From: a bacterium
GTDB taxonomy: Bacteria > Actinomycetota > Acidimicrobiia > Spongiisociales > UBA5794
Assembly (NCBI GenBank): GCA_024226255.1
Contig: JAAELU010000187.1
Span: 1 to 59,769 of the forward strand
DNA: 59,769 nt
Direction of reading: 5' to 3'
Shown here in pieces: positions 2,031 to 3,332 of this stretch. Position numbers and translations under genes: made by a program. The notes under the pieces were generated by a model, which was not told where the DNA came from, did not search any database, and was given only the letters and a program-made list of their open reading frames with translations. The first letter of the stretch is position 1. The number at the start of each line of letters is the position of its first letter.

Positions 2031-2209
2031 TGCGCTCACCTCCTCTATGGCGTGACGGCACCCCTCACAGAGTTGACTGGAGACCATCGCACCGCCCTTG
2101 TCATCGAACATACCAGTCTGCGCAGGCTGAGTCTGGATGCTCTCGGCTCGATTCCTTCACGAGTCGAGTAGCTCCGATTTCGCGACCACGCGATCGCGCT
2201 TTCATGCGC

Positions 2210-2225
2210 TACAGTCATCTTCCGA
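2210..2225 (+). promoter_or_regulatory. Putative -10 element TACAGT and TCCG start region of the pyrB leader transcript
   Basis: TACAGT at 2210-2215 followed by CATCTTCCG then ATG at 2225. Confidence 0.5.
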
Positions 2226-2308
2226 TGTATGAGGTGTCGTTACCCCGAGCGTTGCCGTCCTGGCGGACGGCTTTTTTTCTGCCCGGATTCGATTCCTCAA
2301 CGGGATGA
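2225..2308 (+). CDS. Putative pyrB leader peptide MYEVSLPRALPSWRTAFFLPGFDSSTG (27 aa)
   Basis: ATG 2225 to TGA 2308 reads through the terminator hairpin, as pyrL does in enteric pyrBI. Confidence 0.4.
   Translation: MYEVSLPRALPSWRTAFFLPGFDSSTG
2254..2278 (+). terminator. Intrinsic terminator/attenuator upstream of pyrB
   Basis: GCCGTCC-tggc-GGACGGC followed by T7; the upstream gene is divergent so nothing else needs terminating here. Confidence 0.75.
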
Positions 2309-2354
2309 GTTGCTGGACTCGTCTCGATGAAATGAACAACAAGGAGTACATCGG

Positions 2355-3332
2355 ATGACAACGCGGCGGCTGACGGAACACCTCCCCTTCGGAGAAAAGC
2401 GGGACCCTCGATTTTTCGGACAGGACATCTTGTCGGTGTCCCAGTTCAATCGTGAGGACCTCGAGACCATCTTCGAGGTAGCCCACGAGATGTACGGCAT
2501 GGTGGAACGGATCGGAACCTTCGATCTGCTCAAGGGCAAGGTACTGACCAACCTCTTCTACGAGCCATCGACTCGAACGTCGTCATCGTTTGTGGCTGCA
2601 ATTGAACGACTCGGCGGCAGTGTCGTGCAGATCAATAACGTCAAATACTCCTCGGTTTCCAAGGGTGAGACTCTCGAGGACACCATCAAGACGATGGAGT
2701 CCTACACCGACGCCATCGTGCTGCGTCATCCGGAAAAGGGCTCCGCAGCCCTGGCCGCGGCAGCGGCAAGCAAGCCGGTCATCAACGCTGGTGACGGGCC
2801 GGGCGAGCATCCGACGCAAGCACTACTGGACACCTACACCATCAGTGAAGAGATGGGAACCATCGACGGCCTGACCGTCACGATGCTGGGTGACCTCAAG
2901 TACGGCAGGACTGTGCACTCATTAGCCAAGTTGCTCACGCTCTTCGATGTGAAGATCAACTACGTCTCTCCCGAGGCTCTGAAGATGCCAGAGCTCCTGA
3001 TCAAGGAAGTCGATGCCGCCGGTATCGACCAGTACGAAACCACGGACCTAGACGAAGTGCTTGCCGCCACCGACGTGCTCTACGTCACCCGGATTCAGAA
3101 GGAGCGTTTCGAAGATCCGAGCGAGTACGACGAGGTCAAGGATTCGTACATCATCACCAACGAGACGTTGCGGGCCGCCAAGGAGGACATGATCGTGATG
3201 CACCCGCTCCCCCGAGTTGGCGAAATCGCAACCGAGGTCGACAGCGATCCGCGAGCTGCTTACTTCCGCCAGATGGAATATGGCATGTACGTGAGGATGG
3301 CGTTGCTGTCCCTCGTTTTGGGTCGCGCGTAA
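2355..3332 (+). CDS. pyrB: Aspartate carbamoyltransferase catalytic subunit
   Basis: [68 protein letters not shown]. Confidence 0.97.

Follow-up and report, generated by a model that had tools for sequence, protein, structure and literature searches.

For repressor-free control of pyrimidine genes the textbook mechanisms come, to our knowledge, almost exclusively from enteric bacteria and Bacillus, and Actinobacteria are thought to rely on PyrR. Bacillus subtilis pyrG is reportedly controlled by CTP-sensitive reiterative transcription together with a terminator. In the enteric pyrL leader a terminator lies inside a leader ORF before pyrB, and the ribosome is taken to block the hairpin (PMC5021804, citing Roland et al. 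1988). Start-site switching at pyrC and pyrD adds two extra C residues that stabilise a 5' helix (PMC6524683). Sensor ORFs of actinobacteria include leaderless sensory sORFs (Cys) in mycobacteria and the trp, leu, ilv and aroF leader peptides of Corynebacterium (10.1101/834739 and PMC3890552, respectively). A search of the main texts of openly accessible papers turned up no account of a leader ORF before actinobacterial pyrB and none of start-site choice gating leaderless translation.

The locus described here lies in the window, i.e. the whole 59,769-nucleotide stretch of DNA that was analysed, from a metagenome bin of an Acidimicrobiia bacterium (90.7% complete, 4.9% contamination). The product of its stand-alone pyrB matches TIGR00670 with 383.5 bits (cut-off 236.95); a second carbamoyltransferase on contig C380 was considered as the true pyrB and rejected, its neighbours being carbamate kinase and an ornithine-type paralogue. 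The parts of the pyrB leader are as follows:

2210..2215, + strand: -10 element TACAGT, of the TAnnnT type, read from the sequence
2216..2224, + strand: spacer CATCTTCCG, the initiation region, in which T6, C7, C8 and G9 after the -10 element are 2221-2224
2222..2229, + strand: 5' segment CCGATGTA, complementary to 2347-2354
2225..2308, + strand: leader ORF lacking a Shine-Dalgarno sequence (SD), with ATG at 2225 and 27 codons plus TGA at 2306-2308; it crosses the terminator
2254..2271, + strand: terminator stem-loop GCCGTCC-TGGC-GGACGGC, -12.8 kcal/mol
2272..2278, + strand: T7 tract of the terminator, which is also codons F-F of the leader ORF
2301..2326, + strand: second hairpin of 11 pairs in the minimum-free-energy fold, holding the leader stop codon 2306-2308
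2341..2346, + strand: pyrB SD, AAGGAG, with a similar SD in orthologous leaders
2347..2354, + strand: TACATCGG, partner of 2222-2229, between the pyrB SD and ATG
2355..3332, + strand: pyrB, stand-alone, aspartate carbamoyltransferase catalytic chain, with ATG at 2355

The layout noted in the initial annotation (TACAGT, TCCG, ATG 2225, an SD-less ORF of 27 codons, hairpin and T7) agrees in every part with the window sequence. No purine-rich SD was found 5' of ATG 2225 in the window, the 27 codons translate as MYEVSLPRALPSWRTAFFLPGFDSSTG, and the transcription start is predicted within 2222-2225. The minimum-free-energy fold of 2216-2360 has z = -4.08, and a hairpin 3' of the T-run is also present in other leaders.

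Elsewhere in the genome, on another contig, pyrR is encoded (236 bits vs a cut-off of 138) in the operon pyrR-pyrC-carA-carB-pyrD-pyrF, which is preceded by a perfect PyrR box, GGTCCAGAGAGGCC, and from which pyrB is absent. The earlier statement that there is no pyrR gene is therefore correct for the window and wrong for the genome. Its companion, that the pyrB leader has no PyrR loop, is upheld: neither PyrR RNA nor a loop of the ARUCCAGAGAGGYU type was found in that leader, the Rfam search over 1900-2500 at E<=10 gave no relevant match, and matches to the PyrR core motif number 4 across the window, where 4.37 are expected, with none inside 2200-2360. RF00515 was not found genome-wide, a weak blank in that its controls match only in Bacillus and Lactococcus. 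The locus thus has in common with PyrR control, i.e. attenuation in Bacillus and translational repression in mycobacteria, the pathway and a genomic PyrR with canonical box, but the leader itself has neither PyrR box nor anti-antiterminator. Comparison shows the pyrB leader to be independent of the PyrR box, and since pyrB has moved out of the PyrR-controlled operon it would otherwise be unregulated.

Conservation was assessed in 26 distinct leaders, all belonging to pyrB orthologues that are at least 76% identical and have upstream sequence, from 25 genomes in four families of Acidimicrobiia plus one metagenome contig; they form nine clusters at 80% DNA identity, and because they are related the leader counts overstate independence. 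TAnnnT, spacer, ATG, hairpin and T-run are present in all 26, which places the arrangement far beyond chance. The spacer from the -10 element to the ATG is 8, 9 or 11 nt long (9 in 18 leaders, 11 in 6). The frame of the leader ATG, as the initial annotation had anticipated, runs open through the terminator and past the T-run in 26/26, and the other two frames do so in 8/26 and 13/26; since one control frame reaches 13/26, frame openness is partly due to GC-rich composition. Leader ORFs range from 24 to 48 codons; they overlap the pyrB start as ATGA in 10 leaders, end at most 4 nt away from it in 3 and are fused to it in frame in 1. Their peptide sequence is unconserved, with no conserved residues or codon runs among the 26 leaders, and indels alter the register between frame and hairpin without ever closing the frame. 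A start site 3' of the hairpin, named earlier as an observation that would speak against the model, is not indicated, in that TAnnnT is absent between the T-run and the pyrB SD in 25/26 leaders, that of the window among them. By comparison, then, the predicted promoter, ORF and terminator constitute a conserved layout.

The leader is narrowly distributed. An nhmmer search of the window's own genome yields the pyrB leader alone (E 1.7e-12; next best 0.1), and at more distant pyrB loci, 73 of Chloroflexota type and 13 of a clade with 65-70% identity, none of the 86 has a match at E<=0.01 (best E 0.1). Those 13 loci have a long ORF ahead of pyrB, mostly of about 1.1 kb, which we take to be a putative dihydroorotase. 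Across 151 genomes a covariance model built on the leader found 16 examples at pyrB and 8 ahead of an NCS2 uracil-type permease, and comparison thereby links the leader type to two pyrimidine genes. The permease set used for helix analysis has 13 leaders, giving 39 leaders altogether (26 pyrB + 13 permease); these member counts leave out 7 further partial matches that cover the terminator part alone. Eight weak matches (L250, L253, L255, L257, L290, L291, L296 and L297) were rejected as having no ATG layout or following gene.

The terminator hairpin at 2254-2271 is the best site of a terminator scan of 1900-2500 (2 sites found, 0.3 expected) and the top site in 1-20000. Hairpins with a perfect stem of at least 7 bp followed by T6 number only 6 in the 5 Mb genome, that of the pyrB leader included, and 3 of the 6 are in short-ORF leaders, namely those of pyrB, ilvB and cimA. 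Over the 26 leaders the hairpins range from -9.1 to -19.6 kcal/mol, with 5-8 T within 9 nt 3' of the stem in every case, and the check on stem covariation named in the initial annotation is positive, in that stem sequences differ by lineage and pairing is always kept. The hairpins were folded one by one because the MAFFT alignment misplaced them; RNAalifold on that alignment gave no useful structure. An RNA antiterminator 5' of the hairpin was sought and rejected, there being no stable alternative fold with the 5' arm (z -0.22 to +2.0). A U-rich pause cluster was likewise rejected; the T fraction in the 25 nt after the AUG is 0.20 vs 0.19 for the genome, and only leaders L002, L216 and L005 are U-rich there.

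These features point to a ribosome-dependent transcription attenuator of the stand-alone pyrB, a reading that we hold to be likely. The TAnnnT promoter would initiate RNA a few bases from the SD-less AUG. With no ribosome close behind RNA polymerase the hairpin would form and transcription terminate ~50 nt past the AUG, and a ribosome loaded at the 5'-terminal or nearly 5'-terminal AUG would cover the 5' arm of the hairpin, so that polymerase reads into pyrB; in many relatives the translating ribosome would reach the pyrB start. It counts against such an attenuator that loading and movement of the ribosome would have to fit into only ~50 nt of transcription, that the hairpin is preceded by no U-rich pause cluster and that in 6/13 permease leaders the ORF ends short of the hairpin. 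We infer both the translation of the ORF and the antitermination by the ribosome.

The resemblance to pyrBI/pyrL of Escherichia coli and Salmonella is that the terminator is directly before pyrB inside a leader ORF with no RNA antiterminator. The present ORF differs in being SD-less, in starting 8-11 nt after the -10 element and in not being homologous to pyrL; it also differs in that the U-rich, UTP-sensitive pause region is missing before the hairpin, in belonging to Actinomycetota and in that the same leader type is also found before a permease. The pyrB leader is an analogue of pyrBI/pyrL, not a member. With the actinobacterial sensory sORFs the leader shares a promoter-adjacent short ORF 5' of a biosynthetic gene, and leader peptides of ilvB and cimA are encoded in the genome of the window as well. 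Those sensory ORFs respond to an amino acid by codon runs and act via alternative RNA structures or sequestration of the ribosome binding site, whereas the ORF before pyrB is without conserved codons, extends over the terminator itself and would control a nucleotide gene.

How the attenuator would sense pyrimidines is less clear than the attenuator itself, and here the initiation region is suggestive. In the pyrB leaders a pyrimidine is found at position 5 in 21/26, at position 6 in 22/26 and at position 7 in 24/26; position 8 is C in 22/26 and position 9 is a purine in 26/26 (G in 23/26), so that the TAnnnT-pyrimidines-CG-ATG pattern of the initial annotation is conserved. The pattern of Y5-Y8 and R9 is present in 2/40 other gap-9 promoters of the genome and is therefore not generic. 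The genome-wide distribution of gaps between TAnnnT and start codon peaks at 6 (148 ORFs), 7 (44), 8 (57) and 9 (40), where the background is about 5-12; leaderless-type promoters are common in this actinobacterium, the setting that had been supposed for the leader. The gap of the pyrB leaders is never the modal 6, and with a gap of 9 or 11 a truly 5'-terminal AUG needs a start at position 10 or 12, which counts against the strict form of the earlier model with a 5'-terminal AUG.

Pyrimidine levels would most likely be sensed through start-site choice: pyrimidines occupy the optimal start positions 6-8, and position 9 is G. At high CTP or UTP, RNAs would start at Y7 or C8, leaving the AUG 2-3 nt inside the transcript and buried in a 5' helix, which would be local in many relatives and in the window would be formed with the pyrB translation start region. 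At low pyrimidine or high purine NTP, starts at G9 or A10 would weaken the helix and place the AUG at the extreme 5' end. That several start sites are used, and that NTPs are the signal, we infer.

Helix predictions bear on this proposal in different ways in different leaders. In the window the duplex 2222-2229/2347-2354 reaches -13.9 kcal/mol in an RNA begun at C7, weakening to -8.8 with a G9 start and to -4.3 with an A10 start, and pairing of the 5' end to pyrB is strong relative to shuffles both here (z -3.85) and in L208, the closest relative of the window (z -3.55). As a family feature such pairing was rejected, since z is below -3 only in these two and above -2 in 21/26 leaders. The pyrB SD (2341-2346) and AUG are unpaired in the ensemble despite the 5' pairing. 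A local 5' helix is absent from the window's own leader and its subgroup, and this, together with the PyrR of the genome, also speaks against the model in its strict form. Among the pyrB leaders 13/26 have positions 7-9 paired, 6 of them at -8 kcal/mol or below. The permease leaders are more uniform: a 5' helix containing the AUG is predicted in 13/13 with C8 paired in all, and the predicted closing pair is at position 7 in 8/13 (U-A 3, C-G 4, U-G 1) and at position 8 in the rest. The closing pair at position 7 covaries (U-A/C-G), and from position 7 the helix has a mean of -8.3 kcal/mol vs -5.3 from G9, a loss of ~3 kcal/mol. Because position 7 covaries and C8 is paired in 13/13, positions 7-8 of the permease leaders would be transcribed in at least some RNAs.

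The likeness to pyrC/pyrD of E. coli and Salmonella lies in pyrimidines at the preferred starts with G at 9 and, for the permease leaders and half of the pyrB leaders, in a predicted helix that would gain from two extra 5' pyrimidines, a gain that in the window is confined to the long-range pairing with 2347-2354. Unlike the enteric helix, which hides the SD of the regulated gene and has a translational output, the present one takes in the AUG of the leader, or in the window the spacer between the SD and AUG of pyrB, with antitermination as its proposed output, from start sites that are predicted. With B. subtilis pyrG the proposal shares NTP sensing at initiation coupled to a downstream terminator; it differs in that there is no conserved start homopolymer and no complementarity of an extended 5' end to the terminator arm. 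Reiterative transcription was itself rejected, no conserved homopolymer being seen by eye in the spacer. That the start-site switch belongs to the attenuator falls a little short of an even chance in our estimate, and the statement that combines attenuator and switch is evenly balanced.

The same evidence may be read with a single start, and the alternative that survives best is the same ribosome attenuator with one fixed start, probably G9 (Y-1/R+1), which we regard as rather unlikely. The signal would then be the speed of polymerase vs the ribosome, or general coupling or growth rate: low UTP or CTP would slow polymerase, mainly in the T-tract, and the ribosome would catch up as in enteric pyrBI. 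The ORF-over-terminator layout with no antiterminator suits such a device, C8-G9 conservation may be read as simply setting the start at G9, the window subgroup has no local 5' helix, and the unusual distance of 9 resembles that of initiating-NTP-sensitive promoters such as rrnB P1. However, the U-rich pause cluster is missing, a fixed start does not explain why positions 5-8 avoid purines, and the covariation of position 7 with C8 paired throughout the permease leaders argues that positions 7-8 are transcribed in some RNAs at least.

It is improbable that the ORF is untranslated, the 5' helix and terminator instead being recognised by a protein or small ligand, with the ATG kept as part of the helix or binding site. 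The near invariance of CGATG(A), which is base-paired in many leaders, and the unconserved peptide would agree with this, as would the permease leaders in which the ORF stops at codon 9, 3-8 nt 5' of the hairpin (6/13). But the terminator shares no alternative pairing with the 5' helix, the AUG never varies although the loops and partners of the helix do so freely, and fewer than 30 nt before the terminator leave little room for an aptamer, with no Rfam match; the frame open in every pyrB leader and the frequent stop/start overlap with pyrB also favour translation.

5'-terminal hairpins often stabilise mRNA, and being common they lend some colour to the view that the leader has no part in pyrimidine regulation and acts constitutively, as a partial terminator topped by a stabilising 5' hairpin or as a small-RNA source. 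This we consider quite improbable, given that in the 151 genomes the leader type was found only ahead of pyrB and the uracil-type permease, that canonical terminators are very rare in the genome and half of them in biosynthetic leaders, and that pyrB outside the PyrR operon would be otherwise unregulated. Control of the terminator by PyrR bound to the pyrB leader, as in Bacillus, is extremely improbable in spite of the pyrR gene, since the perfect box is before pyrR and none is in the leader, the anti-antiterminator architecture is missing, and the leader-carrying genomes G415 and G034 (both 95% complete) have no PyrR match at E<=1e-30.

Returning to the attenuator with start-site switch, a broader statement may be put forward tentatively. 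Acidimicrobiia would have a PyrR-independent pyrimidine regulon, pyrB plus the uracil-type permease, governed by a hitherto undescribed device of two stages in which an NTP-sensitive start at 7/8 vs 9/10 locks or exposes the leader AUG and a leaderless ribosome is the antiterminator; the principles of enteric pyrC and pyrBI would be fused in a 60-nt element of independent origin. A clade with pyrB outside the PyrR operon seems to have its own repressor-free control, made up of leaderless translation and TAnnnT promoters, elements characteristic of its phylum. Should the start-site switch prove true, no earlier case would be known in which start-site choice gates leaderless translation, nor one in which leaderless translation gates an intrinsic terminator. 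At only 60 nt the element lends itself to complete reporter testing and is a possible compact nucleotide-responsive part for actinobacterial engineering, and the 39 natural variants offer material for studying how close the ribosome must be to stop termination.

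The gene pyrB at 2355..3332 (plus strand) encodes an aspartate carbamoyltransferase (TIGR00670, 383.5 bits in a profile search with a cut-off of 236.95), and since its upstream neighbour, which has a phage tail collar domain, is read in the opposite direction, the interval 2032-2354 is its promoter and leader region. Re-reading of the sequence bears out the layout in the initial annotation, i.e. TACAGT followed by T6-C7-C8-G9 (spacer positions counted from the end of the -10 element), an ATG opening a 27-codon frame that has no SD before it, and a hairpin with a T7 tract:

1257-2111, minus strand: divergent neighbour of pyrB, domain match PF07484 (phage tail collar; E 4.7e-30), likely start near 2031, SD GGAGGTG
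2210-2215, plus strand: -10-like TACAGT
2221-2224, plus strand: T6 C7 C8 G9 of the spacer CATCTTCCG that follows TACAGT
2225-2308, plus strand: leader ORF of 27 codons without SD, ATG 2225, TGA 2306-2308
2254-2271, plus strand: terminator stem-loop GCCGTCC-TGGC-GGACGGC
2272-2278, plus strand: T7 tract
2301-2326, plus strand: second hairpin
2341-2346, plus strand: pyrB SD AAGGAG; pyrB ATG 2355

The terminator hairpin ranked top in a terminator scan both of 1900-2500 and of 1-20000, and none of the Rfam families matched the leader of the window. A few kb past pyrB, at 7915-10196 (plus strand), an electron-transfer subunit of PyrK type with a DHODB Fe-S domain precedes a flavoprotein resembling the glutamate synthase small chain or dihydropyrimidine dehydrogenase; the two may form a redox pair related to pyrimidines.

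The leader is present at all 26 distinct loci with at least 76% protein identity and upstream sequence present, drawn from 25 genomes in four families and one metagenome contig (two further matches lie at contig ends); the 26 form nine clusters at 80% DNA identity. Two genomes flagged as unpublished carry no weight in any of the conclusions. Every one has TAnnnT, a spacer and ATG. The conserved string proposed initially, TAnnnT-N6-CCG-ATG, held for the -10 element, the ATG, C8 (22/26) and a purine at position 9 (26/26), but not for a fixed length, the spacer being 9 nt in 18 leaders, 11 nt in six and 8 nt in two, nor strictly for G9 (23 leaders). Pyrimidines occupy positions 5, 6 and 7 in 21, 22 and 24 of the 26, respectively. 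As had also been anticipated, the frame over the terminator is conserved as an open one, running unbroken beyond the T-run in 26/26 versus 8/26 and 13/26 for the remaining two frames, and the terminator stem is kept across relatives as a hairpin of differing sequence (26/26; -9.1 to -19.6 kcal/mol, beginning 11-30 nt 3' of the ATG, with 5-8 T in the next 9 nt). Indels alter the register of frame and hairpin even among close relatives, so that the peptide varies, yet the frame remains open. In ten leaders the ORF overlaps the pyrB start as ATGA; it stops at most 4 nt from that start in three, 14-26 nt 5' of pyrB in ten and farther away in two (-49 in the window). No stable alternative fold was found in the RNA 5' of the hairpin (z -0.22 to +2.0, 26 leaders), and 25/26 have no TAnnnT in the stretch from the T-run to the pyrB SD.

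A covariance model built from the pyrB leaders gave 39 matches in 151 genomes of the order: 16 pyrB leaders, eight upstream of an NCS2 permease, eight others that were inspected and rejected as leaders of the pyrB type, and seven partial ones covering the terminator part only. The permease matches PF00860 (304 bits), and its best named match is uracil permease NF007995 (338 bits, under the cut-off of 477). In the genome of the window only the pyrB leader matched, and this permease was not found at E<=1e-90; both genes carry leaders in genomes such as G317, G039, G028, G430 and G436. All 13 permease leaders (L259-L265, L289, L292-L295, L249) have TAnnnT-N9-ATG, a predicted 5' hairpin containing the AUG, and a terminator followed by a strong SD; the ORF passes the T-run in seven and ends at codon 9, 3-8 nt 5' of the hairpin, in six. 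Pairing is predicted for C8 in all 13 and for position 7 in eight (U-A three, C-G four, U-G one), where close relatives differ by a double change from U-A to C-G, and the 5' helix averages -8.3 kcal/mol with a start at position 7 and -5.3 with a start at G9. Positions 7-9 are paired in 13 of the 26 pyrB leaders, six having a stable helix (<= -8 kcal/mol), and the local helix is absent from the subgroup of the window. In the window, as in L208, its closest relative, the 5' bases 2222-2229 are instead predicted to pair with the segment 2347-2354 that separates the pyrB SD from the AUG, and SD and AUG themselves remain unpaired; the energy of this duplex is -13.9 kcal/mol for a start at C7, -8.8 for G9 and -4.3 for A10.

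Nineteen other permease orthologues (L267, L269-L271, L273-L282, L284-L288; alignment A3) have a different conserved leader about 135 nt 5' of the permease start, with a small hairpin containing a covarying CG/UA pair and a 13-bp hairpin GAGAGCCACCCC...GGGGTGGCTCTC whose 5' arm mimics the SD GGGAGAGG and whose 3' arm is complementary to it. Compensatory changes occur in 8 of 18 predicted pairs and Rfam gave no match at gathering score; this may be an as yet unnamed element of riboswitch type serving a nucleobase transporter.

Outside the close group, the leader model matched none of 86 loci at E<=0.01 (13 orthologues at 65-70% identity and 73 Chloroflexota-type loci). At the 13, a long ORF, in most of them about 1.1 kb, lies 5' of pyrB and was taken from its position and C-terminal sequence to be a dihydroorotase. 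Four Anaerolineae loci (L039, L043, L044, L050) have long pyrimidine-rich tandem repeats of the TCTCCAA/TCTCCAG type, 60-150 nt 5' of pyrB and abutting the SD, which may be a separate, repeat-based leader.

For the pyrB leader the attenuator core, i.e. ribosome-dependent control of termination, is probably correct, and choice of start site as the pyrimidine signal is a more tentative proposal, a little short of an even chance. The comparison establishes, at the level of sequence, a layout of promoter, SD-less ORF a few bases past the likely start site and intrinsic terminator inside the ORF, and a leader type with no apparent RNA antiterminator or PyrR box, tied to two pyrimidine genes. A ribosome loading on the terminal or near-terminal leader AUG would trail the polymerase and cover the 5' arm of the hairpin, as in enteric pyrBI, where passages of PMC5021804 describe a ribosome behind polymerase masking the terminator hairpin. 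The pyrimidine input would be the choice of start site, as in pyrC/pyrD, whose helix is stabilised by two extra 5' C residues through such choice (PMC6524683). Both devices are already known in enterics, and the leader resembles pyrL and pyrC as an analogue without belonging to either system. The U-rich pause cluster is absent from the pyrB leaders, which counts against a pure pyrBI copy. Strict leaderless initiation is disfavoured by the -10-to-ATG gap of 9 or 11 and by the report (PMC4633059) that in mycobacteria the ATG has to be precisely 5'-terminal.

Control of the leader by PyrR is very improbable. The initial annotation saw no pyrR gene, which holds for the window only: contig C756 encodes PyrR (236 bits, cut-off 138) in an operon efp ... 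pyrR-pyrC-carA-carB-pyrD-pyrF without pyrB (L207, 2388-10293, minus strand), and a perfect, canonical PyrR box, GGTCCAGAGAGGCC, lies immediately 5' of the pyrR SD (about L207 10340-10353). Motif and Rfam searches confirmed that the box is absent from the pyrB leader of the window. Canonical pyrB directly follows pyrR in G004, of the same genus and without the window's pyrB type; in G323 and G028, which have the pyrB leader, it is pyrC that does. PyrR was not matched at E<=1e-30 in G415 and G034 (leader present, each 95% complete), which may lack it altogether. A second aspartate-carbamoyltransferase-like gene on contig C380 (L204, 4074-7809; TIGR00670 251 bits, just above cut-off) was excluded as biosynthetic pyrB by the carbamate kinase and divergent ornithine/putrescine-carbamoyltransferase-like gene alongside; this cluster type, widespread among relatives, resembles a catabolic route for carbamoyl transfer. 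The gene in the window is therefore the biosynthetic pyrB of the genome, unlinked from the PyrR operon.

In Actinobacteria, leaderless or promoter-adjacent leader-peptide attenuators are described for amino acids (10.1101/834739; PMC3890552). Full-text searches, which did not extend to subscription journals or supplements, turned up no account of an actinobacterial leader ORF ahead of pyrB or a uracil permease, nor of leaderless translation being gated by the choice of start site.

Among 3073 ORFs of at least 250 codons in the genome, the distance separating TAnnnT from the start codon has a sharp maximum at 6 nt (148 ORFs) and shoulders at 7 (44), 8 (57) and 9 (40), against a background of about 5-12, so that leaderless-type promoters are common; a pyrimidine directly precedes the start codon in 89% of the gap-7 class, and the modal start implied by the gap of 6 is position 7. 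Canonical intrinsic terminators are rare: 5 Mb hold six perfect-stem (at least 7 bp) hairpins with T6, only two of them behind a long ORF. Three of the six sit in short-ORF leaders, of pyrB, ilvB (contig C620 about 11980-12100, L298; MTHQHTLVLIK*; acetolactate synthase 917 bits) and citramalate synthase, cimA (contig C319, minus strand, L299; MTHRNTIIIR*; 699 bits), the latter two being, from their sequences, classical leader-peptide attenuators. Such promoters and terminators together make a leader-ORF device plausible in this organism. In one relative (L035, genome G441; 1 of 26) the leader ORF lacks a stop codon and continues in frame into pyrB, and initiation at the leader ATG would there yield an enzyme with an N-terminal extension.
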